A DNA stretch of 64,000 nt, from NCBI GenBank assembly GCA_973895155.1, contig OZ316895.1:15568816-15632815 (forward strand), written 5' to 3'. Each line of letters starts with the position of its first letter. Within the stretch, counting starts at the first letter, position 1. The translations under genes and the position numbers were made by a program. Below are positions 1-46,128 of the stretch, in pieces. Source of the DNA: Marsupella aquatica (lineage: Eukaryota; Plantae; Marchantiophyta). The notes beneath the pieces are model-generated. The model saw nothing but the letters and a program-made list of their open reading frames with translations, was not told where the DNA came from and did not search any database.

Positions 1-2235
1 GTACAGTTTGTCGAGAAAAATCACCCGCACATCTTGGTCTCGTCCAATGGCTGGATGATTTTTTTTCCACAAATGTCGAGAGTCTCCCCAACAAGGATAT
101 CTTTCATTTACCTGACAATTGGACAAAAACATAAGTTTTTGATGCCTTCCAGTCCGAAACCTAATGCGCCAAGAACAAGGCATGACATATTCGTGGTTTG
201 TTCGCATTTGGAACAAGGAGTTTCCTCGCGTGCGCATCCCCAAAAGGAGCCGTTTCTCCACCTGCGCCCCGTGTACTGAATTCAAAGCACTCCGTGACAA
301 GGCAACACTCGAAGCAGAAAAGAGTAAGTTTCTAAACCTGTGTGTTACTCCCGATAATTTTATCGGGTTGAGTATTCATGTGCTTCTTCTTTGGCCATGT
401 GAGTGAATATATCGTTTGAATAGTTTGAATACTGAACCTGATAAATTTATCGCTATCACAGTTTTTCATTACGGTCTTGTGTTTGAATACTGAACCCGAT
501 AAATTTATCGTTGTCAGGGTTTATCATTACGGTCTCGTGTTTGAATACTGAACCCGATAAATTTATCGCTGTCAGGGTTCAACATTGCGGTTATCATGTT
601 TTGTCCTAAACATTTTTATTATTGTAGGAAAATTCTCAACATTGCTAAACGAGCATCGAAAGGCACAAGCAGTCGAGAGGGAGAAGTTAGCAAAGCACCG
701 GAGCAAATGTTACAAGAGTCCGGAGAAATATTTGGGCATCTGTATTGATGGAATGGATCAAAAGAAGACAGAGATACCTCATTTCATTCGGTGTCCGAAG
801 AATATGGATGAAAAATATTTCATCCCCGTACACGTAGTGGGTTGTTTGATCTTCACAAACAATTAAGTTCAAATGTTTTTTTGAACTATCCAAATATTCA
901 CAATGATAGCAACCTGACCATCCACGTTATCCAGCATATTCTGAATACCTGGGAAGGTCTGCTCCCTCCAGTGCTTTACCTCCAGCTTGATAACACAGCT
1001 CGGGAAAACAAGAATAAATATCTTATGGCATATTTGAATATGTTGGTGGAGATAGGTGTTTTCCAGAAAATAAAGGTTGGTTTCCTATTGGTAGGGCACA
1101 CCCATGATCAAATTGATCAAATGTTTAGCAAGTTTTCTTCAAAATTGAACAAGCGAAAAGCTTTCCGGTTGGACACTCTTTCAGCAATCATAGAGGAATC
1201 CTACAATCCTACGGCAAAGATATTTTTCGTCGAGGAGGTTGCCGATTTCAAGAAATTTGTGTCAGACAAAGATCAAGCAAATGACAAGGATATGGATGGT
1301 CAGGTTCTACGTACTCTCCACGGCATAAGTGCTCAAAAACAATTTTGGATTACTAGAGTACTCAAAGATGGAAGTGCTCGGTCCGTATTCCATGCCAAAC
1401 ATCTTTCAACGACAATCGATTGGGGGGAGACGGTGGATTTTGTTCAATACATTCCATCATCTGGAATGTGGGTCGCACCGCAAATGGCATTGAAGTCGGC
1501 CACGGGAGCGACAGGAGACAATGAAGAGCAAGAGAATGATGCTGAGGAACAAGATGAGCGGGCGGCTCAAAGTTATTTGTCAACTCTTCAAAAATATCGA
1601 AGAGCAATTGAAGATGGATTTAATTACTTTGACGACGCAGATCGTCTATGGTGGGGTCATTTTTTTGACAAACAAAAAGAAGTGATTCAGCACCACCTGA
1701 AACCTGCACAATGGAGTTTTGATTGGAGTTGGCCCAAGGTAAACGTACAAAGAGAACTTCCGAGTAATCCTACGGAAGCAGCAATGGAACCTAGCTTGGT
1801 TGATAAAGTAGCGGGTGTGAGGACAGTCATGTATTCCGGAAGTCGAAGAAAAGTCACGGAAATTGGAGACTTCAAGGATCTAGAGGTGAATACTAAATTT
1901 GCAATGATATGTGTAGTAGCCCATCAGGATCCCAAGGGAAGACCATTCTGGATGGCAAAAGTGACTGAGATTCTCACAAGAATTAACGACATCCCGGAGC
2001 GGATTAAAATCACTTGGTATGCAATGGATTCGGAGGAAGAGTCTGCAATTGAAGGCAGATATTATCCGGAGAAAGAGGCTTCATCTAGCAAAGTACTGGA
2101 GGATGAATTGTCCCTATCAGAAACTGCCGTTTATGCGTATAACTTTGCGTTATTGCAAATAGTACTCTCCCTATACAAACAAGACGAATCATTCAAAATG
2201 CAATGGAGACTGTAGTTGTTGATAGTCGAAGCTAG
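1..2235 (+). pseudogene. DUF7869-family (Sola-like, RNase H-fold DDD) transposase, disrupted and 5'-truncated by the window
   Basis: Exon 1-323 (WLDDFF..HLPDNWTK..SWFVRIWNKEFPRVRIPKRSRFSTCAPC), GT-AG intron 324-627, exon 628-2235. Putative catalytic motifs are CIDGMDQ, LYLQLDNTARENKN and FLLVGHTHDQIDQMFS, followed by a C-terminal PFWMAKV..ITWY beta-barrel-like module. Lesions: TAA at 132-134 and frameshifts near 162, ~860 and probably ~2155 (alternative frame ..TLPIQTRRIIQNAM.. ends at TAG 2233-2235). Confidence 0.85.
423..600. repeat. Three ~58-bp tandem repeats in the transposase intron, each containing the palindrome (C/T)GATAAATTTATCG
   Basis: Units beginning GTTTGAATACTGAACC start at 423, 481 and 539. 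Confidence 0.9.
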
Positions 2236-2563
2236 TTTCAGGTTTAAGTTATAATGGTTATCGTTCCCATGAATATGTACAGTGGTTATCGTTCTGGGAC
2301 TATGTACTCCGCAGCTATAATGATATCTTTTTTTTTAAATAATTGCAATGACAAACCAGTTAGAGAATACAATGCTGTCCGATAAGATTATCGACAACTC
2401 CATTCCCCCAGCAGGAACACCGCGACAGTCCGATATATGCAAAGTCCGATAAATTTATCGCATTAATAAATGTGAGAAAGGATCTTCCTCATGGAATACA
2501 GAAGTCGATAAATTTATCGACCACTTCATTGGTGATTGACATTATCCTAACGAGCACACGCAA

Positions 2564-3676
2564 CTAATCTAATAACATGTCGTTGAGATCATCCTCATTT
2601 GGTGTTCTGGGAGGCTCTTCCTCAGTTTCTTCTTGTTCCTTTTCGGTCTCCTTCATGACCTCAACTACGTAAGTCGATGTCCCGAGTACACCCAATTGGC
2701 CTGCAATTGGTGGTTGAATCTCATGACCTTCAACGCCGTGCCCTTCAATCTGGGATTCTCTATATAAATTCCAGTTTGACTCCAGAATCATGATCCGGGA
2801 TTTTACAAAACCAATCTGCGCAGAACTCTTATCAACAGCACAACCCTGGCGAGAATTGAGGAGCGTAGCAGCTAATGTCGATCCGGTTCCACAACAAAGA
2901 TCAATAACCCAATCCTCTTTCTCAGAGAAATGGGAAACAAACCAAGCCCCTAAACCAACAGGCTTCTGATATGGGTTCACAACAAATCCCAACGGATCAA
3001 CGGACTTCTTGGTTACACATGGAACCTTGATGATATTGACGCGATACTCATCCGGTTGGAAATTGCACATGTTCATGTTCCGAATGCCTTCCTCGCTATA
3101 GAAACCTATTGACCAGTTCTCAAAACCCCACGCCAATCGAGCTCCAGCGGGATGCTCATGAATGTTAGTCTTCTCCCAGATTCCAGCCTCAACCCCACAG
3201 TTGCATACACTCTCCAGTGCAGACATCACCATATGTGTTTGTTGTAGTGAATGGATCACAACAAACCTCCACTGCTTAGCGGTCGTCATCTTTGAGAAAC
3301 TTGTCAACATGTCTAAAATGTCCTTTTCTGTGAAGGCCACTTCATCAAACTCCGAACCAGGAGCATTAAAACCATACAGAATATCCGCAACCGCAAGGGT
3401 GTAAGCCCTTGGCTGAACAAAAGAATCCAAAATTCGAACATCACCAACATGGAGATAGTAAGGAAAAGAATCCCTGTCTGCATTTTTCCATGTTTGTTCA
3501 AACGCTTCTGCTGTGCCCTCGCCTAAGGACCTCAGCCGATTGTACTTATCGATTGCAGCAAGCACAAAATTCTTAAACACATAAGGGATTTCAGCTGAGG
3601 GAACAATAACCTCCCCCGCAGAATTATAAGTGACAGCCGGAACCACTTTGCTTTTCCTTTTTGAATTAATCTTCAA
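2564..3676 (-). CDS. Last exon of the cargo gene: N6_N4_Mtase (beta-class amino-methyltransferase) domain with acidic tail
   Basis: Uninterrupted reading frame with beta-class motif order: LHVGDVRIL, then motif IV-like LAVADILYG (3374-3385), then NPYQKPVGLGAWFVSHFSEKEDWVIDLCCGTGSTLAATLLNSRQGCAVDKS (SAM-binding motif I region near 2880-2900). Confidence 0.85.
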   Translation of the reverse strand: MKINSKRKSKVVPAVTYNSAGEVIVPSAEIPYVFKNFVLAAIDKYNRLRSLGEGTAEAFEQTWKNADRDSFPYYLHVGDVRILDSFVQPRAYTLAVADILYGFNAPGSEFDEVAFTEKDILDMLTSFSKMTTAKQWRFVVIHSLQQTHMVMSALESVCNCGVEAGIWEKTNIHEHPAGARLAWGFENWSIGFYSEEGIRNMNMCNFQPDEYRVNIIKVPCVTKKSVDPLGFVVNPYQKPVGLGAWFVSHFSEKEDWVIDLCCGTGSTLAATLLNSRQGCAVDKSSAQIGFVKSRIMILESNWNLYRESQIEGHGVEGHEIQPPIAGQLGVLGTSTYVVEVMKETEKEQEETEEEPPRTPNEDDLNDMLLD

Positions 3677-3720
3677 CTGTAAGAATGTCAGACACATCTA
3701 CAGTTAGAATAGCGTGAGAT

Positions 3721-3907
3721 GAATGCTAAAGCCGATAAAAATCTCACGATGGAGCACGCTAGCCAATAGATGGAATCGCTTAGAAACCAACAAAGGAATG
3801 CTAAAGCCGATAAAAATCTCGCAATGGAGCACGCTAGCCAATAGATGCAATCGCTTAGAAACCAACAAAGGAATGCTAAAGCCGATAAAAATCTCACGAT
3901 AGAGCAT
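3721..3907. repeat. About 2.5 copies of a 75-bp tandem repeat inside intron 3677-3927
   Basis: GAATGCTAAAGCCGATAAAAATCTC starts at 3721, 3796 and 3871. This explains the spurious repeated peptide SIVRFLSALAF in ORF 3688..4659. Confidence 0.9.
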
Positions 3908-5950
3908 AGTGTGAGAGGAATGCTTACCGCGTCACTCAATTTCTCCGCCCATATGCCAAGGACCGCGACATCTATTTCGTTGGGAAATATTTCTCTGCAT
4001 GTTGCCCAATCTGGCTGACCAGATATCTGCAAAAATAGTTTCTTCACCTTGGCAAGCTTTTTCAACTTCTCACCTTCCTTGTGCATTTGATCCAAAGTGA
4101 TCACCTTCCCGATAACCCTATTCAAGAGACGCTTGACATGCTCCTTATTTGACAGTCCTTGGAGACCTCGAAATGAATTTAAGTTGAGGTCACCAGCAAG
4201 TTTATTCATTTTAATCTCCCTTACTGTCAAAGGTTTTACCTTTCCCTTTGCGTTCGTCGTTGCCACAATTTTTTTGGGTTGTCCTAAGACAATACCTTTC
4301 TCCCACATCTGGAAAATCTTCTCCTGAAGATCCCAAATTTCACCTGTTCGGAAAGCAATTTGGAAAGCCGGATCATGTTTGGCCATGGAGTCACGAACTC
4401 CTGGCGTGTACTCCATCATGCATTCTTGACAACATGCTTCGCGGACATCTTTAGTCGAGCCCACACCCATTTCAAGGAAAATATTGTGACAAGCACGAAC
4501 TTGGTCAATTTTAGTCATGTTCTTCCGATACTCCTGGTCATAGTTATGCTGGAAGCCTAACTTTCGGACCTCGGATCTCTGCCTTGATCGCGTCCGTCTC
4601 ATACATCGAAAGAGCCGTCTCCTCCTCCTGATCAGCCTACAAAAGCGTTGCAAATTCAATTAAGGAAAGAAACTACGAGATTTTTATCAGAGTTCGCATT
4701 TGTTCAACATGCATAACTCCACAATCCGCAATTCAGGAAATAAACAGCGAGATTTTTATCGGATTTCATGTTTGTTAAACAGTACAACGACGTAGTACTT
4801 ACCAATGGCGCCGCAGGAACCGCGACTGGAACTGATGGAATTGACGGAGCTCTATCTACTTCTGCAGCCACCGTCTCAGTCCAGCCAGTCCTCTTCCTCT
4901 TTGTGCTAAGTCCAGAACCAGATGGCCCGGATCCCTCGGATCCTTTACTTTTGCTTGGTTTAACGGATGGTCCTCGATGGTTGCCCCGGCCTCTCCCACT
5001 ACCGCCAGTTTCTTGGCTCTTCTTCCCACCGTTAGAGGTTCCCGTGGCATCTCCCCTGCCGCTACCTCTCCCTTTCCCTTTTCCACTTCCTGAAACCCGA
5101 CCAGAAGTTGTAGGTTTGTCCACGTCAATATGTGTAGAGGATTGCAATGGTTCTTTCCGCCCCGATATTTTATCAGCATTAGAACCACCGCTGCCACTTG
5201 AACCTGGTTTCTTGAAAACAATTTTGCGGACAGGTTTGAACTCTTCACCCACAAGTCTCTTGTACTCTGCATTCACCCTTGGAAGCATGATGGCATCACA
5301 ATCTTGCACATACTGGCCGATCAAGCCGAACCCATAACATTCATCTCTCTTGCTGCCCAAACATCGGCAACAAGGGGATCTTCTGGATAACTGTCCATCG
5401 ATTTCTCATCAAAGTTATCGAGAGTAATAATGAGAGATGTGAAACCCTTGCGCCCACACATTGTCAAGAAACTAAGGCCCTCTGTCAACACTTTTCCCTC
5501 CCCGTGGCCAACCATGAACTCGACGACGGCAACAGCAATGACAGGGCCATACGAAACATTAACTTTCACCAATTTTTGCAACTGGACCCAAAGGATTGGG
5601 GTAGCACAGTCTTCAAAACCCGTGGAATGTAATCTGGCGTCACGGAAGTACCATGACTTCTTGATACACTTGACCTCTTCACAAATGTCTTCACTTGTCC
5701 AAATTGCATTGGTGAGGCTTGTCATGAGACTTTCTGCCTCAGCAGATCCACTCTTTCCACTAGCAGCCATGGAAAAGTCTGCAAATAAACAAATTCCAAT
5801 GCAAAGAGCGATAAAATTATCGCCGCCAATCTCACAGACATGTGGACACGACATCTCATCACACAAGGACAAAGAGACCGATAAAATTATCGCAAAAGTG
5901 AGCCTTCTTTAAATTGACGGCCGAGTGTACAGGTCGAAGAATCAGCTACG

Positions 5951-5993
5951 GAACCCTAAATCCAAAACCTTAACCCCTAAACCTAAACCCTAA
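5951..5993. repeat. Degenerate plant telomere-like (telobox AAACCCTA) cluster
   Basis: AACCCTAAA TCCAAAACCT TAACCCCTAA ACCTAAACCC TAA, lying between the orphan ORF stop and the leader of the MTase gene. Confidence 0.6.
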
Positions 5994-6640
5994 TCATAGT
6001 TGAACCTCGCCAGAGCGAAGCGTTTGATCCGCTTCTTGGGCCATTGGGGAATATGAGTGACGCGATGATCATAAGCCCACAGCCAATGGAAATCAACTTC
6101 ACCAGTCTCAGGATTCACTACTGCTATTGAATACCGGTGTGACGGAATGTCACAACAAGCATTTGTGCAGCATGGACAGATCTCACCATTGGCAAGGACG
6201 TTCGTCCACAGGCAACTTACATAGATCAAGTTAAAGAGCCCACAGACTGGCTGGGGGGGGGAGTTGACGAATCTTGTATGAATATAGTTTCCCACCAGTG
6301 TCAATAAAAAACTCGGTGGCAAGAGGATTGTCCAGCTCGTCAATCACATCCTGAATCTCATCGAATGCTCTACGTCTGTTGTCGGCATAGAATTCTGGCT
6401 CATAAGCAGGATTGCCCTTCACAACATGACAGCAGTGGAGTATAAAATGTCTTACTGCACCGGTTTTCAGAAAGTAGGATGGGTGGTACTGATCCGTAGA
6501 GAACTTTGAGTCGCACGAGTCTCTTGTACAACCGGCGTGCACGTTTGACACAATTTTCAAGGAAGACAACCATTTGTCACAATACCTGTTGTCCACGGAG
6601 TGCAATCGACCTTCCGTTGTGCCTCCTAAACCCGGCAACA
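5990..6640 (-). pseudogene. Cys/His-rich orphan protein (~210 aa) split by a frameshift in a G9 run
   Basis: ORFs 6231..6761 and 5990..6343 join at the 9-G run 6253-6261 (..KIRQLPPP / QPVCGLFNLIY..). A splice acceptor CAG lies at 6641-6643. Motifs include HAGCTRDSC, HCCH and CPCCTNACCDIPSH. The start codon is unresolved. Confidence 0.55.
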
Positions 6641-7166
6641 CTGCGACATCAGAGATGAAGATGAGTCTCCAAACAAAACAAAGGAAAATGATTCTCACAG
6701 GAGGATGCGATAAGTTTATCGCACTTCGCATTCGAATTGAAAATATGACTTCCTCAGACACCTAACCCCTGAATTTAATCTTTCACAAAAATGACAACTC
6801 CGATAAATTTATCGGATTCTCAATTACTCCTCTTTCCATGAAAGGAATGAAGACTCCGATAAATTTATCGGAATGAAGGCAACACCTCTCTAAACACTGG
6901 ATCAAATGATTGCAACAGAGGAATGCAAAATGCGATAAATTTATCGTAGTCCGCTCGGATCTGGACATTTTACACTAAATGACTAGTTAGTCTTACATGG
7001 AGAACTTGAACAGGAATGGCTGTTCCGATAAATTTATCGGGTTTTCAGTAGAAAGAGTCGAATCGCTTGGGAGGAATGTAAGACTTGATGGGAGTTTGGT
7101 ATTCGCTCTCAGTCAGGAGATATTTGCTCTGGCGAAAGCAAACGTTTTATGGGCAGCCCGCTCCTC

Positions 7167-7241
7167 TTTATATAGGAGACGCTCTAAACCATGGTTAATT
7201 TCCCCTTAACCATGGTTAAGTTTCCCCTTTACCTGGGTTAG
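7167..7241 (-). promoter_or_regulatory. Putative TATA box for the minus-strand cargo transcript with upstream palindromic AACCATGGTT elements
   Basis: CCTATATAAA on the minus strand at 7167-7176. Two AACCATGGTT palindromes and one variant lie at ~7187-7241. A splice donor GTAAGA lies downstream near 6996. Confidence 0.45.
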
Positions 7242-7493
7242 TGCGTGGTCGTTCCTGGATTACGCGGTTCGGACCAAGTTACTCGCAGTTCGGACTTTTT
7301 CACTGACGGAATGTAAAACCCGATGCACGTATCACTCCCTGCATTCCCGCGGCGATGCAATGGAGGAAAGTGGCGTTTTGGAGAGTTTTTTCCAATTTTA
7401 TCGGTCATTGCATTGCCTTAGAAAAAAAACGGGATCGGGCTAAACGAGAACTCCGACACACTTCTCGGTCGGTCCGAAATCATGTTTACTGTG

Positions 7494-7820
7494 AAATATC
7501 ACACGCCGAGTCAAACTCCAAACATGCGCACAGCGGTTCTCTTTTGTTTTTTGGTTGTTAACATTCCTATCCGACGTATGTGATATCTATAATTTATTGA
7601 GCATTTGCCAATATAGTGAAAACATATGAGACAATTAGTGACAATCATGCAAAATATCACACGTCAAGCTTTAGCTCCAAACATGCGTACATGAATGTCA
7701 ACATTGTCAAAATTTGTTTCACAATACCCACAAATACCACTAAATTGTTAAGGGATAGCGAGAAAATTATTATGCGGATTACCACATGCCGAGTAAAACC
7801 TCCAAGCACGCGCGCACAAA
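7494..7820. repeat. Three diverged ~40-bp subterminal repeats
   Basis: AATATCACACG..CTCCAAACATGCG-like units near 7494, 7651 and 7781. Confidence 0.55.
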
Positions 7821-8024
7821 AGTCTTCTCTATCCCTCCTTACATAGAGTGCTCTACTTTTGGTGAAGTGTGTCTAATGAAAAAAACTCAAGTTTTTTATA
7901 CAATTTAGAATGGAGACACGTTCTATATTTAGCGGGGTCGACATACTAGATAAGTGAGAAATCCAGACCACCCCAAATTAGCAGATATCGCTTACCCCAA
8001 TCGAGTTTATCCACAACTTTAAAA

Positions 8025-8610
8025 CCCGGGCTTATCCTCCCTTAACCCGGGCCGGGCCTCCCTCCTCCGTCCTCCCGGGCCTCCCTTCCCCCGGGCCGGG
8101 CCTCCCTCCTCCCTCCACCCGGGCCTCCCTCCACCCGGGCCGGGCCTCCCACCACCCTCCCCCCGGGCATCCCTTCACCCGGGCCGGGCCTCCCTCCCTC
8201 CACCCGGGCCGGGCCTCCCTCCACCCTCCTCCCGGGCCTCCCTTCAACCGGGCTGGGCCTCCTTCCTCCCACCACCAGGGCCTCCCTCCACCCTCCTCCC
8301 GGGCCTCCCTTCACCCGGGCCGGGCCTCCTTCCTCCCCCCACCCGGGCCTCCCTCCACCCGGGCTGGGCCTCCTTCCTCCCCCCTCCCGGGCCTCGCTTC
8401 ACCCGGGCCAGGCCTCCCTCCCTCCTCCACCCGGGCCTCCCTCCACCCGGGCCGGGCCGCCTCCTCACCCGAGCCGGGCCGGGATGTAAAGTCGGGGCCG
8501 GGGCATAAAGCCGGGTCCGGGTGATGAGAGGTAGGGGAGGGGCCGGGCCGAGTCTGGGAAGAGGCCGGGAAGAGTTCGGGCCGGGCCGGGAGAAGTTCGG
8601 GCCAGGCCGG
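8025..8610. repeat. GC-rich subterminal array of CCCGGG(CCGGG)CCTCCCTCC units
   Basis: Repeated ACCCGGGCCGGGCCTCCCTCC variants, pyrimidine-rich on the + strand up to ~8470 and purine-rich (GGCCGGG..AGAG) afterwards. Confidence 0.9.
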
Positions 8611-8868
8611 GGAATAGCAGCGAATATGCGTCAAATAAGGACAATTCAGGCCGGCAAATGACGAGTTTACGTGCCGGGAAACTCGGCAAGTTGCCCGTCA
8701 CATCAAACCGGGACCTGAAGCCCACCCCTCCGCCTGTTACTCCTAAAAAAAGAATCTGGGCTCTGTCCGCTCCAGCCTGTCCTCTATACGCATACTAGAC
8801 AGGGTGAGCAACTGAGCATAGATAGGTCAGTGAGCCTGAAGACAAATAGGATCTACAAAGAGAAAGTA

Positions 8869-9002
8869 CCACACCTCAAATCGGGTCCAGTAGAGTATGA
8901 TGATCAAACCTCCATAGTGAACCTACAATGGGAGTAACACACCTCAAATTGGGTCCAGTAGAGTATGATGATCAAACCTCCATGGTGAACCTGCAATGGG
9001 AG
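8869..9002. repeat. 68-bp tandem duplication
   Basis: ACACCTCAAAT.GGGTCCAGTAGAGTATGATGATCAAACCTCCAT.GTGAACCT starts at 8871 and 8939. Confidence 0.85.
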
Positions 9003-9232: not shown

Positions 9233-9542
9233 CCAATTGGCTTAGGTCAATTGGCTAGAGGATTTGCCTGGACTTGAGAGGTCCCAGGTTCAATCCCCCC
9301 TCCACACACTGGGGTGTGGAGGGTATATGTGTGTGGGTGGGATGGGTTTTGTGGATAGTGGATTGGAGTTCTGATTATCTGCTCGGCCCCTGGTCGTCCA
9401 CTTTGTGGCCCTGATTTAATCCTCTCTCCTTCCTGGTGCGGGTCCCTGTCGGATCCGTTGGGGCTCCAGAAAAACTGTCACATTGGGATGGGGGGAGTCT
9501 AATTGTATTTACTCCCCATTTCCGTTCAAGACACAAAAAAAA
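9233..9542 (+). mobile_element. tRNA-derived SINE
   Basis: A-box-like TGGCTTAGGTCAATTGG, B-box GGTTCAATCCC (9287-9297) and an A-tail at 9535-9542. Flanked by an imperfect TSD, AAAAAGAGGCAAAATAA and AAAAAGGAGGCACATTAA. Confidence 0.7.
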
Positions 9543-11863
9543 GGAGGCACATTAAAGTCTCTCTAATGAAGACATCAAAGGCTCACAAGTATATTCCAAG
9601 CTTCCCCATAGGTGGGTATATCCTGGCCAAGTAAGATGCTCTAGATATGCAGTTGTAAAGGAAGAGACATTTCATATTTACTCGTAGGACTGTGAAGTGG
9701 GCCCATTTTTGTCAGTGAAATGAACAGGTCTATGTCCTGGTAGGTGAAATGTAAGATAATGAGGACCACCCAAAATACTGTTTTTTTCCTTGTCACAAAG
9801 GTGTCCCAGAAATGCCGTTCAAACTAAAGCACTGCAAACGCAATGTCAGATGCATTTCTGAAGGAAACTTACTACAATGTGTGATTACGTGCTTCATTAT
9901 GGCGAGAATTATGCTGTACTCTAAGATGGTTGTAAATGAATCTACTTTGTAAAATATGGCAACGCTGCTTTCATAAGTACTCGTGAACACCTTGACATGT
10001 CATTCTTACGTTTGCGTTGCCATTTCTCTAGCTTTTTGCTGCCAAACAAATGAACAAAATCCTTCGATCAAACCAGTTTAATCAGACTGTGCCACAATAC
10101 TCTGCAAATATTTTATGTATGCTGATGAATTTCTTATGGACCTAACGCTGAATTCATTTTGGCCCATAAAAGTGAGGCTCAAGGAATAATATATGGACAG
10201 AAAGTGAATAAATTTATCATATTTGTAGAAGCAAGAAACTAGTGGAGTGCACACATTTTTCGGGGTTTCCCCTCCTCTTTTATCCCAGGCGTGGGTTGTC
10301 CTTAAAGCAAAGCTTTATTCCTTTGACCTGAAGTGGAAAGAAATCTGACATCTGGCTGGCCCAAGTAGAATTACAATTGTAAACAACATAGTTTCCAAAT
10401 CCTGACCTATATATGCAAGGCAAGACCAGCAACCTTGAGCAAAAGCACCTACTCGTCATAACACCTCTTCGATGTTTGAGAATTCAAGAACAACTGACAG
10501 CTTCAAAACATTGGTTAGGCATTTATCAGGATAGCTAGAGGAGAGACATACCAATCGGTGGGATTGAATTTGTTTCAGCAAAAATTGAGAGATTCTCATG
10601 AGATAGTAGAAACCCGGCTGATCTGGCCAATGGTTCTGAGAAGTCCCAGCTCGGATTACTACATGCTTTCTTTGTGGTGGCGACAACTACAATGAGGAGA
10701 AATAAATTTCGCACAAACATGTGTTTTGCTCTGGAAAACTGAAAAGAGCAGGTGCGGAACAGCAAACTTTCATCAGAAGCCTTGTAAGTAGACTAATAGC
10801 ACCTTACAATCGACCTTACAATACTAAGAACGGCTGAGCAACCGCAGAGGGAAACGGAAACCAAACATCTCGCATTGAATCCAATCTGTTCCTTGCAACC
10901 ACCACAGTGGCCCGTTATGATCATTCATTGAACTCAAATGTAACGTAAAATCTGTCCCGCAAATGCTCTGATTGAATAAATGTCGGAAATGAAGAATTCT
11001 CGTGAGATCATATACAAATGACAGCAGATACAGTTCCAGTGTTCCACCATACCAGCAGGTTCTCATAATTCTGAACGAATGACTGGCATAAAGAGGCCCT
11101 GAATACCGCAAGCCAGAGTAAGTCACGTATCACTCATGCATGGTAGAACATCAGATTCGAATACATTCTGGGCATCTGAGCACTGACCTGGTGACAAAAG
11201 CTTTCAGATAGCACTTTGGTGTTTAGGGTTTACAAAAATGAAAATTTACGAGATCGTAGCTCTTTCCTTCCAGCTAAAGCAAGTGTTAGGAATGTTTTCT
11301 TCGTTGTAGATGACTGACTTGAATCAGAGAAAAAGGCTTTAGACACAAGCATGACATTTGGATGGACGGAGCAACTTCCTATTGACTGGCTTAAATGTGT
11401 GACACAAGGACAACTCATGCCTTTCGGCACTCGTGCCGTCGAATGGATCTGCGAGGATAATTATGGCAAACTATGGATTGAACGACAAGTACGGTACTTA
11501 CAAGATGTTGTCATACCTAGACACAAATCTGAATTTCATTCAAAGAACCAACTCGAGCTCAGAGTACACACTCACTTCACAAGCCTTCCCGTCAAAATGA
11601 AAAACCCAAATACGTATTCATTACTGGCTCCCCACAATTTGTGGCCCAACTCAGGGCAATCAAGGGCCACCGGGTAAACTCTCGAAACTACAGTACGGAA
11701 ACCCTGAAGTACCAGTGTCACCCTCAAAGGAGCCACGGGTGACTATGAAAGTGATGAAAGCCCTCCTTATCCTAGTTGGATTTCTAGCTCAAACCTTTCT
11801 TTGAACACGCTGTGCTTGGTCTCACATTACCCTAGTGTCATCCAATAATTCTTCAATTTTGGA

Positions 11864-16707: not shown

Positions 16708-17913
16708 ATGGTGGTGCCAGGTATGGCTGCTGCTGAGCCGGTCTCAGGACGGGATGGTGGTGGTGCTACTGCTACAGAGCGAGACGGAGAGCATGGGGCG
16801 ATCACTCTCAATGATGATCTAGTGTTCGAAGTGCTGAGGCGAGTCGATCCTGTGACCCTCGCAACGGCCAGTTGTGTGAACTCCGATTTTCGGCACATGG
16901 CTGCCAATGAAGTGCTGTGGGAGAAGCTGTGCAACAAGCGGTGGCCTTCAACTAGGGATGCCGATGTGAAATCGATTCTGTCAAACGTAGGAGGATTTAA
17001 GAAGTTGTATGCGGAGTGCTACCCTCTGATCGTGAACAGGGAGCTGCCAGTGCTGAGGGAGGAGGATGAGTTCGTGTCGGAGGATTGTGATCTGTGGTGG
17101 GAGGACGATGATGACCTGGATGAACAGGAAGCGTCCGACCTCTCCCCGTCTAACCTCATCTCCATCGTGGATGTTATCTACAAGGAAAAGTCTGTATTTT
17201 CGAGAACTGTGGAAGGGATTCCAGGGGCGGACGACTTTCTGGGGTGGTTTTCTAATTGCCCGTTTCGCATCGATCTACTTAAATCGCCCGAGGAGGAGGA
17301 CGAGCGGTGGGATTACGAGAATCAAAATGCCGTATTAGTCGAGGATGATTTGCCGTCCATCACGTCTGTGGAAAAGGAGCGAAAGGATGGGAAGTTCTGG
17401 AAGGCGCTCTGGGATAACATGAGGGTCAGCTGGATCTTGATCAACAAGAAAACGAAGCAGATGGCCAATTTAACAAGCTGGAAGCCTTTGGGAGGGTTGC
17501 GGCACTGGCCGTGTGACGAGGACTATCTCATTCGATTCGGATCCATTCTTCCTGCTAATCGGGACTCTCTATGCAGCGCTGTGCAATGTAACATCGTCAT
17601 GAAGTGCAGATTCGCCAATGTAGGCGAGGGGGAAAATGTAAGGACCACTCTCAGACTGACGGAGCTGAGCATGCAACTTGAAGATATGGGGGGCGCTCAT
17701 GTCAATGGCAAGGACAGTCTAGCCATACTTCACAGGGCGTTGAGCTGTCCTAAGAGTAGAAATCATGCTGATGTGCTGGATTCGTATCACCAGTATCTCA
17801 AAGTCCAAAGCGAATTGAAGGAGAAGAAAATTAGACACGAGGGCCGTCTCGACACTGCTGCAGTTGTCAGTGGCATTAGTGTATTTTTGTTCGTGTGTTA
17901 CTTTATCATCTAG
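16708..17913 (+). CDS. Intronless plant F-box protein (At2g27310/At2g36090-like), 401 aa, with C-terminal hydrophobic tail
   Basis: F-box LNDDLVFEVLRRVDPVTLATASCV..EVLWEKLCNKRWPS. Family motifs LISIVDVIYK, WFSNCPFRIDLL, VSWILI, ANLTSWKP and ELSMQLEDMGGAHVNGKDSLAIL. Confidence 0.9.
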   Translation: MVVPGMAAAEPVSGRDGGGATATERDGEHGAITLNDDLVFEVLRRVDPVTLATASCVNSDFRHMAANEVLWEKLCNKRWPSTRDADVKSILSNVGGFKKLYAECYPLIVNRELPVLREEDEFVSEDCDLWWEDDDDLDEQEASDLSPSNLISIVDVIYKEKSVFSRTVEGIPGADDFLGWFSNCPFRIDLLKSPEEEDERWDYENQNAVLVEDDLPSITSVEKERKDGKFWKALWDNMRVSWILINKKTKQMANLTSWKPLGGLRHWPCDEDYLIRFGSILPANRDSLCSAVQCNIVMKCRFANVGEGENVRTTLRLTELSMQLEDMGGAHVNGKDSLAILHRALSCPKSRNHADVLDSYHQYLKVQSELKEKKIRHEGRLDTAAVVSGISVFLFVCYFII

Positions 17914-45285: not shown

Positions 45286-46128
45286 ATGGATCGTGACCGG
45301 GACCAACAATCAGCCAGCTCAGTCGGTGCAGCCGATGGCTTTTGCTTCTTCAGCAGTAGAGCAAACAGCATGCGAGGCAGCACTCCGAGCAGTGAAAGCG
45401 ATGCCAAGATGTCGTCGACGGGAGTCGGAGAAAAATGCTTAGCAGTGACACTGATGTTCAGCACTCACAGGAACGGCAACAACGTGCTCTTTCTCGAAGC
45501 AGGCAAGGACTTCGTCGACATTCTCTTGAGTTTCCTCACTCTCCCCATGGGCGGCATCATCAAGCTCCTTTCCTCATACGGCGGTGGAAGCCATCGCACC
45601 ACCGGGCTACTCGAAGAGGAGGCCATCTTCAAGATCTACAACAGCGTGGACAGAATGGAGGACGAGAGGTTTTGCGCCAGCAAGAAATCGCTTCTGGACC
45701 CACAGGAGGCCTCCGGATTCGGAAGCAAGCTGCTGCAGAGCGATGATCAGGAGCAGCAATTGCCCTCCTCTTCCGCATCACACAGCAATTGCGGTGACAA
45801 TTCTTACTATTCGTGTGGGATGGTGCCGCACTGCGTTTGCATCACGAAGAAGGTGGGACGGAGGTGCCCGAGGCATGGACGCAAGATGCAGACTCTTTGC
45901 AAATTTGTGGAGGTGAAGGGGAGCAAACCCAACAACAATAACAACAATAATCTTAGGCCTGATCCGGACACGATGGGAATGGGGTACGTCAAGGATGTTG
46001 GAAGATTTTATGTGACGGACAACATGACGATCTACCCGGCCTCCAAGTCTTTGGCACTTCTACAGAAGCTGAAGGTGGAGAGAATGAGCCTGCTCAGTAG
46101 CCTTGACCTCTTCATTGGCATGGATGAG
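45286..46128 (+). CDS. DUF674 family protein, exon 1; exon 2 not located
   Basis: VLFLEAGKDFVDILLSFLTLPMGGIIKLL and GYVKDVGRFYVTDNMTIYP. A GT donor follows GMDE at 46129, the same position as the intron in the paralog. Unspliced read-through stops at 46245. Confidence 0.8.

Follow-up and report, generated by a model that had tools for sequence, protein, structure and literature searches.

DNA transposons that carry a ParB-methylase gene have so far been mentioned in passing in algae, without a functional test. In Ectocarpus, the Sola transposon Sola1-1_Ec32 has an opposite-strand gene for a ParB-like protein with an N4C/N6A methylase, and its best transposase match is Sola1 of Physcomitrella (PMC12477816, Genome Biol 2025). 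In the red alga Bostrychia, Plavaka transposons have accessory genes (PAG2 and PAG3) for a PF01555 methylase and a ParB-like protein, as well as inverted-repeat arrays (bioRxiv 10.1101/2025.02.11.637652). Transposons can also encode proteins that recognize their own DNA: VANC of the Arabidopsis VANDAL elements binds family-specific motifs in non-coding parts of the transposon that encodes it (PMC5735166). Retrotransposons bearing DNMT or Dam are known as well (PMC5890265). Here we describe a 64,000-nt stretch of the liverwort Marsupella aquatica (contig OZ316895.1, positions 15,568,816 to 15,632,815; hereafter the window), bases 1 to 8712 of which we interpret as the rightmost 8.7 kb of a cut-and-paste DNA transposon, likely of Sola type, that is present in many copies, this one being decayed. 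Taken whole, with marking of the element's own DNA by a ParB-methylase included, this explanation seems to us evenly balanced between right and wrong.

The initial annotation of this DNA, made from the letters alone, suggested an undescribed family type. That suggestion was overtaken by Sola1-1_Ec32, which is of the same design and for which the same self-marking proposal is already in print (PMC12477816); the window element is a further case of a recently noted design, not a new kind. A full-text literature search, with Repbase outside its reach, found no report of a land-plant case or of a conserved palindrome frame, and the moss Sola1 in Repbase may carry a ParB-methylase gene too.

Two convergent genes of one mobile element

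The window opens inside a transposase gene on the plus strand, which converges with a three-exon accessory gene on the minus strand; a third gene (open reading frame 3, ORF3) and tandem arrays lie between the accessory gene and the right end. The features are as follows.

1 to 323, plus strand: transposase coding exon, truncated at base 1 of the window, with a frameshift near 160 (tblastn to the relative P0045; GT donor at 324)
324 to 627, plus strand: predicted transposase intron in GT..AG context, with four palindromes, three of them in a 58-bp tandem array (423 to 591)
628 to 2235, plus strand: main transposase exon, with DUF7869, the D-D-D triad, and frameshifts near 854 and 2154 (Pfam, alignment, indels in other copies)
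2236 to 2563, no strand: spacer between the convergent stop codons, with three palindromes
2564 to 3676, minus strand: last accessory exon, open, with a complete beta-class amino-methyltransferase domain, motif I DLCCGTG, and an acidic tail (Pfam, structure match, other copies)
3677 to 3927, minus strand: predicted intron, in which degenerate palindromes form a 75-bp tandem array (3721 to 3906)
3928 to 4636, minus strand: middle accessory exon, ParB/Srx-like domain and helical part, with about 122 codons missing at 4574 to 4578 and a change of frame
4637 to 4802, minus strand: predicted intron, with two degenerate palindromes
4803 to 5770, minus strand: first coding exon of the accessory gene, an N-terminal domain of no known family and a low-complexity linker, with a frameshift near 5321
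5809 to 5892, no strand: two palindromes upstream of the accessory gene
5990 to 6470, minus strand: ORF3, Cys/His-rich, of no known family, with a frameshift near 6253 (homologues P0225 and P0226)
6708 to 7039, no strand: five palindromes upstream of ORF3
8036 to 8611, no strand: GC-rich subterminal tandem arrays, a 44-bp unit repeated 9.7 times
8651 to 8712, no strand: right terminal 62 bp, likely a terminal inverted repeat (depth fall, contig departures)

That the transposase and methylase genes are parts of one mobile element, as initially annotated, is supported because the convergent pair recurs in the related loci L001, L002, and L004, the two genes share a multi-copy depth, and the copies have one sharp end. 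The pair was seen in three of five metagenome loci, at about 55% protein identity. A DUF7869 transposase lies convergent behind the methylase in L002 (57% over 380 aa) and L004 (55%), and L001 shows only the last 32 transposase residues (62% identity, E 1.5e-10); the L003 and L005 contigs stop 367 and 310 bp past the methylase stop codon, roughly at the expected position of the transposase stop. From stop to stop, the spacer measures about 327 bp in the window copy, 320 bp in L002, and 345 bp in L004.

Five public DNA runs contain the stretch; four were analysed (two organisms and two studies, one run possibly being the source of the window), and X1, with a share of 0.05, was left out. Contigs from the interior of the element had a depth of 520 to 664 in run X2, against 19.5 for the flank contig, and of 829 to 1323 in X3, against 33 to 35. 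They were 97 to 99% identical to the window copy, with 3 to 7 differences per 260 to 360 bp. These values correspond to roughly 25 to 40 young, near-identical copies, a rough figure, since contig depth gives no exact copy number.

At the right-hand side, a 300-bp close-up places the fall to flank depth after 8712 to 8720, and contigs diverge from the window past 8709, 8712, and 8713, where their flanks are dissimilar (agreement 0.41 to 0.73). The terminus is ...CATCAAACC(G/T)GG at 8709 to 8712, the final three bases belonging to the element or to the target site. The initial annotation had put the end at 8784; that candidate, with a Sola-like GAGG../TATA sequence, is ruled out, as the copies stop at 8709 to 8712. 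Positions 8651 to 8712 are common to many more contigs than is the interior, and those contigs have another common interior before 8651. A shared end with a different interior suggests that these 62 bp are likely a terminal inverted repeat, which left ends or miniature inverted-repeat transposable elements (MITEs) would be expected to share; the contigs in question represent either left ends or a non-autonomous (MITE) family of large size. At 46006 to 46040, an 80% match to the terminus was put down to chance: it lies inside a DUF674 exon and has no partner repeat. Runs X3 and X5 have no coverage at 8721 to 8860, which we do not take as an insertion polymorphism, since a hole in coverage proves nothing.

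The transposase

DUF7869 is a family that we take to be Sola-like; a full-text literature search found no paper that names it. Positions 812 to 2212 on the plus strand match this family in Pfam (E 2.6e-46), and the D-D-D signature IDGMDQ / QLDN / GHTHDQID is conserved with 13 full-length relatives, except that P0045 has Asn for the first Asp. Both the DDD transposase of the initial annotation and the DUF7869 match that it expected of this exon were thus borne out. The pieces align at 33 to 36% with DUF7869 proteins of 870 to 1076 aa from Ceratopteris, Riccia, and metagenomes. The first base of the window falls near residue 190 of P0045, residues 189 to 288 of which are matched in two frames by tblastn within the first exon; the left end and approximately the first 190 transposase codons are located before base 1. 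No close relative was found in viral contigs, and there was no sequence match in the PDB. Transposases mobilize the elements to which they belong, and this one would move the element described here. A DDD transposase, a 4-bp target site duplication, and variable terminal inverted repeats are hallmarks of the Sola superfamily (PMC10741241); the DDD triad is present in the window transposase.

A 4.7-kb GTDB contig filed in a Bacteroidia metagenome-assembled genome (L008) holds an intact 880-aa DUF7869 transposase at 1310 to 3952, 49% identical; less than 1 kb lies behind the gene, so that the contig is uninformative on linkage. It is probably eukaryotic contamination, or else a rare prokaryotic member.

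The accessory gene ends in a beta-class methyltransferase domain

The accessory gene is predicted to have three exons on the minus strand (5770-4803, 4636-3928, and 3676-2564), with GT/AG contexts and junctions that read as phase 0. A match of the last exon to PF01555 had been anticipated. The exon itself scored 23 bits (E 8.7e-5) against N6_N4_Mtase, under the curated cut-off of 26.7, and intact relatives exceeded that cut-off with 33.6 and 36.8 bits, so the expectation held for the relatives and not for the window exon. A PDB search with the single methylase sequence gave no matches. An AlphaFold model (27 sequences; mean predicted local distance difference test score, pLDDT, 67.6) matched CcrM (Z 20.2), MboIIA (19.6), BceJIV (18.8), N4CMT (17.7), and PvuII (17.2), against Z of 10 to 12 for METTL3-type folds and at most 6 for unrelated ones; the Foldseek E value was 3e-13. 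Matches to CcrM, MboIIA, BceJIV, RsrI, PvuII, and N4CMT span about 200 to 225 residues at a root mean square deviation of 3.0 to 3.7. The motifs are in permuted order, with motif IV at residue 98 and motif I near 258. On this modelled fold we regard it as confirmed that the convergent, intron-containing gene ends in a beta-class (permuted) amino-methyltransferase, as first annotated (Z 17 to 20 to CcrM/MboIIA).

The domain was also annotated as complete. It is, and its catalytic motif is altered: motif IV reads DILY in the window copy and DIPY in the other copies (all contig depth at 3378, four of four runs), so that DILY is a change private to the window copy. The canonical catalytic motif of amino-methyltransferases is [DNSH]PP[YFW], and the available text of the same survey (PMC4738411) describes no clade like the ParB-methylase family. 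We aligned 174 family proteins, 116 of which cover motif IV. Asp comes first in 109 of the 116 and D-x-P-Y is found in 85, DPPY in 8, and SPPY in none; the motif is mostly D-[IVALF]-P-Y. Because the motifs are Asp-led and SPPY is absent, N6-methyladenine (6mA) appears a likelier product than N4-methylcytosine (4mC), and the 4mC framing of the initial annotation is weak. The family profile matched the 6mA enzymes M1.HpyAVI (7e-16), BceJIV (2e-14), and CcrM (2e-13) against 8e-5 for N4CMT and 0.0075 for PvuII, both 4mC enzymes. Motif IV lends no support to kinship with DN4MT1 or N4CMT, and it also argues against the suggested role of such elements as a vehicle for DN4MT1-like genes.

Nonsynonymous divergence (dN) is far below synonymous divergence (dS) in the methylase, the middle exon, and the transposase (for the L004/L005 methylases, dN 0.087 and dS 0.786). 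Methylase and transposase are alike in their rate of divergence, with L002/L004 dN of 0.176 and 0.184, respectively. This pattern supports the methylase being conserved cargo under purifying selection.

At E 0.001 the methylase family comprises 1081 clusters, the weakest of which include ordinary methylases (P0202, for example). Among 20 members looked up, the named ones are from Chara braunii (P0079, P0096, P0099, and P0104), Ginkgo (P0085, Gb_37443), Adiantum (P0117 and P0121), Riccia (P0108), and Cymbomonas (P0210). No close relative was found in viral contigs or GTDB genomes, and prokaryotic relatives are distant, at about 25% identity. In a tree, a 100/99 branch split the eukaryotic family from six prokaryote-type rows; this tree kept 33 of 44 rows (11 were dropped on a failed motif-I pattern), has long branches, was built without DN4MT1 or N4CMT, and names no donor.

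A ParB-like part upstream of the methylase

In other copies, extra sequence follows at 4577 (seen as contig loose ends), and comparison with L001 and L004 indicates that about 122 codons are gone from the window copy. The lost codons are the ParB-like core, including a GGNHG motif, which the relatives keep. ParB N-terminal domains are characterized by a G-x-[HR]-x-x-R-like motif and a downstream (E/H)N motif; the relatives have GG[NGQS]H. In HHalign, 14 family members scored 31.3 against six phage ParB-like domains (six of eleven fetched, picked by motif), whereas 60 column shuffles reached no more than 14.6; L001 has a weak downstream match to HTH_ParB (E 8.6e-4). We therefore read the accessory gene, with moderate confidence, as a putative fusion of a ParB-like part with the methylase, the ParB core being deleted in the window copy. 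The ParB core had no match in phage genomes at E 10. In a protein atlas, the middle exon fell close to DUF3723 (score 0.96), which we treat as a lead only; DUF3723 is a Starship cargo family, and the text of that report seen here does not mention ParB (bioRxiv 10.1101/2021.12.13.472469). The first coding exon is 33% identical to L001 and L003 and has no Pfam match.

The window copy is dead; the family has intact-looking members

Other copies differ from the window by one base at 160, 854, 2154, 5321, and 6253, where the reading frames of the window copy break (four of four runs); at 160 they have one additional base. The breaks fall in the transposase, the accessory gene, and ORF3; decay in the first two agrees with what was noted initially. 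Because of the five frameshifts, DILY, and the loss of about 122 codons, the window copy is dead and could be served only in trans. The family has intact-looking members; the contigs cannot place all intact features in one copy.

Palindromes with a fixed outer frame

The initial annotation had remarked on one palindrome in the introns of both genes, and this observation was upheld. The word CGATAAATTTATCG has 14 matches with at most two mismatches in 1 to 8712 and none in the other 55 kb; all 14 fall in non-coding DNA, which makes up 38% of the element. Each intron contains palindromes, and each gene seen has them upstream. Relatives have words of their own, 20 copies of one in L001 and 5 to 10 of another in L002 to L005, with no cross-matches. 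All three words reduce to CGA-N8-TCG, that is, three spacer families and one frame. This frame occurs 17 times in the window element and 22, 6, 12, 8, and 5 times in L001 to L005, against Markov means of 0.6 to 1.4 (maximum 3 to 6 in 200). A spacer of 8 alone is enriched in all six elements, and the rest of the window has 3 to 13 copies for every spacer. L008, a DUF7869 contig without a visible methylase, has one. Chance would hardly produce three spacer families with one shared frame. A dimeric DNA-binding protein would be expected to read such an arrangement, with a symmetric outer frame that is fixed and a core that varies.

A candidate mechanism and its alternatives

The function that we propose is that the ParB-methylase binds the CGA-N8-TCG palindromes and methylates DNA of its own element, most likely at adenine; judged from sequence, we give this an even chance. 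The 14-bp palindrome would be recognized by a dimer of the accessory protein: conserved contacts would read the outer CGA/TCG, and the 8-bp spacer would confer family specificity. The bound protein, perhaps spreading like a ParB clamp, would write 6mA on the element, and the mark would shield promoters and ends from host silencing by 5-methylcytosine (5mC), or control the access of transposase, within its own family only. Spacer turnover would make the marking family-specific, as with VANC proteins and their motifs. A stronger version is tentative and, in our estimate, rather less than probable: that land-plant Sola-like transposons might have a phage-derived load-and-mark system, in which a ParB-like clamp would load on operators in every intron and intergenic gap, spread, and deposit 6mA that shields its own family from 5mC silencing. 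Operator spacers and protein would in that case co-evolve like VANC and its motifs, and plants would have a mobile, sequence-programmed writer of adenine methylation.

Several observations weigh against self-marking. In most members I, V, A, L, or F replaces the first proline of the canonical motif IV, so the enzyme may be weak or dead. For the ParB-like part, the HHalign probability is only 54%, with windows cut around the motif; a Pfam ParBc search of the family gave no match, no ParB chain was among the 60 PDB matches listed, and a single-sequence fold of the middle exon was of low confidence (pLDDT 36). The CGA-N8-TCG frame was spotted post hoc, and copies within a tandem array do not count as independent. 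It may instead be the transposase or ORF3 that binds the palindromes. Finally, L001 to L005, which came from a metagenome scan and are 54 to 58% identical, derive from a single assembly.

An altered motif IV is also what would be expected if, in the same element, the accessory protein were mainly a DNA-binding or pairing factor for gene regulation or end bridging, with the methylase fold a weak or dead scaffold, and the methylase domains of DIRS transposons have been described as inactive in the source available. We find this doubtful: motif IV retains its Asp, Pro, and Tyr, and the glycine-rich motif I is conserved, not only among lineages at about 55% identity but as far as Chara and Ginkgo; moreover, dN is far below dS. 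An active enzyme might instead write 4mC, or target a short generic site or the CCCGGG of the subterminal arrays, in which case the palindromes would serve ORF3 or the transposase. The fold matches 6mA and 4mC enzymes alike (Z 20.2 to 17.2), this methyltransferase domain has repeatedly switched specificity according to the part of PMC8885841 consulted, and 18 CCCGGG sites cluster beside the element end. Against a 4mC product stand the lack of SPPY in all 116 members and a sequence profile closer to 6mA enzymes; against palindromes that serve another protein stands the single CGA-N8-TCG of L008, weakly, as this is one short contig. We consider this alternative unlikely. In a last alternative, the methylase would be a gene of the host, or a neutral passenger, that a transposase relic has captured or merely adjoins. 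This could be argued from the spliceosomal introns of the gene and from the named homologues, which carry ordinary gene annotations in Chara, Ginkgo, Adiantum, and Riccia and whose genomic context is not visible. The multi-copy depth of the methylase is that of the transposase, however, with one common end, and the convergent layout is conserved with a spacer of 320 to 345 bp and similar divergence of both genes; this explanation is largely refuted and very improbable. Self-marking by the ParB-methylase is the reading that we carry forward.

Other features of the window

ORF3 is conserved, with four intact, unnamed homologues. Two of these, P0225 and P0226 (257 and 235 aa), are 78 to 79% identical to it over the matched part; the first 70 to 80 codons of the homologues were not found in the window copy. 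No significant family was found in Pfam, PHROG, or NCBIfam, and protein-atlas matches stayed below 0.9. ORF3 may bind DNA or regulate the element.

CCCGGG occurs 18 times in 8001 to 8712 and not at all in 1 to 8000; CCGG occurs 39 times in 8001 to 8712. The observed/expected ratio of CpG is 0.83 within the element against 0.38 and 0.64 outside, which coding content and youth can explain. Two sub-threshold Rfam matches were caused by a palindrome hairpin at 6796 to 6875.

In the flanking DNA, 8865 to 9002 is a 68-bp tandem duplication in single-copy sequence. A separate, very high-copy 300-bp repeat at 9245 to 9545 (summed depth 6761 against 19.5 in X2) has tRNA-like A and B boxes, identified by eye, and an A-rich tail; ARAGORN finds no tRNA in it, and it is likely a short interspersed nuclear element. 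The host genes at 16708 to 46245 are an F-box gene, a plant PDR-type ABC transporter, and two DUF674 genes, and are land-plant-like.

Comparison with known systems

As in Sola1-1_Ec32, whose authors propose that the accessory protein binds and modifies its own element, a DDD transposon here carries a putative opposite-strand ParB-like/methylase fusion. The two can be compared by description only. The Ectocarpus element comes from a brown alga, is 21.5 kb long, and has termini AACCG..CGGTT and a 282-bp terminal inverted repeat, whereas the window element is from a land plant and has the terminus ...CAAACC(G/T)GG, a shared end of about 62 bp, arrays of palindromes, and a third gene; the main text on Sola1-1_Ec32 (PMC12477816) nowhere uses the word "palindrome". 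The Plavaka elements with the accessory genes PAG2 and PAG3 are likewise DNA transposons with a PF01555 methylase and a ParB-like protein, and their tandem inverted repeats are proposed as ParB sites. They differ in having an EnSpm/Plavaka transposase and in encoding methylase-SET and ParB-2-oxoglutarate (2OG) oxygenase on separate genes, whereas the ParB-like part and the methylase would here form one protein. Phage ParB-methyltransferase fusions (for example PV036459.1 and AY657002.1) have the same order, ParB-like and then beta-class methylase, but with only about 25% methylase identity. DN4MT1 of Marchantia (bioRxiv 10.1101/2021.02.12.428880) and N4CMT of rotifers (PMC8885841) are also prokaryotic-type, beta-class amino-methyltransferases in eukaryotes; as described there, they are host genes with (T)SPPY that write 4mC, in contrast to the transposon-borne D-x-P-Y family with its ParB-like partner domain.

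The present family makes self-methylation directly testable in a plant, with tens of young copies that have an intact catalytic motif and a precise candidate site. The CGA-N8-TCG frame is kept while the spacer changes between families, and relatives occur in Chara, a liverwort, a fern, and Ginkgo. Self-marking, if true, would account for local signals of amino-methylation in plant methylomes and provide a writer that can be targeted. VANC and the VANDAL elements are a functional parallel in this respect: the transposon encodes an accessory protein, and tandem repeats in its introns and intergenic parts multiply short motifs specific to the family. In the account available (PMC5735166), that system is Mutator-type, uses an unrelated protein and non-palindromic motifs, removes 5mC where the window element would write a mark, and has been shown experimentally. 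If the proposed function is correct, the window element would have a second, unrelated route to sequence-specific anti-silencing beside VANC.

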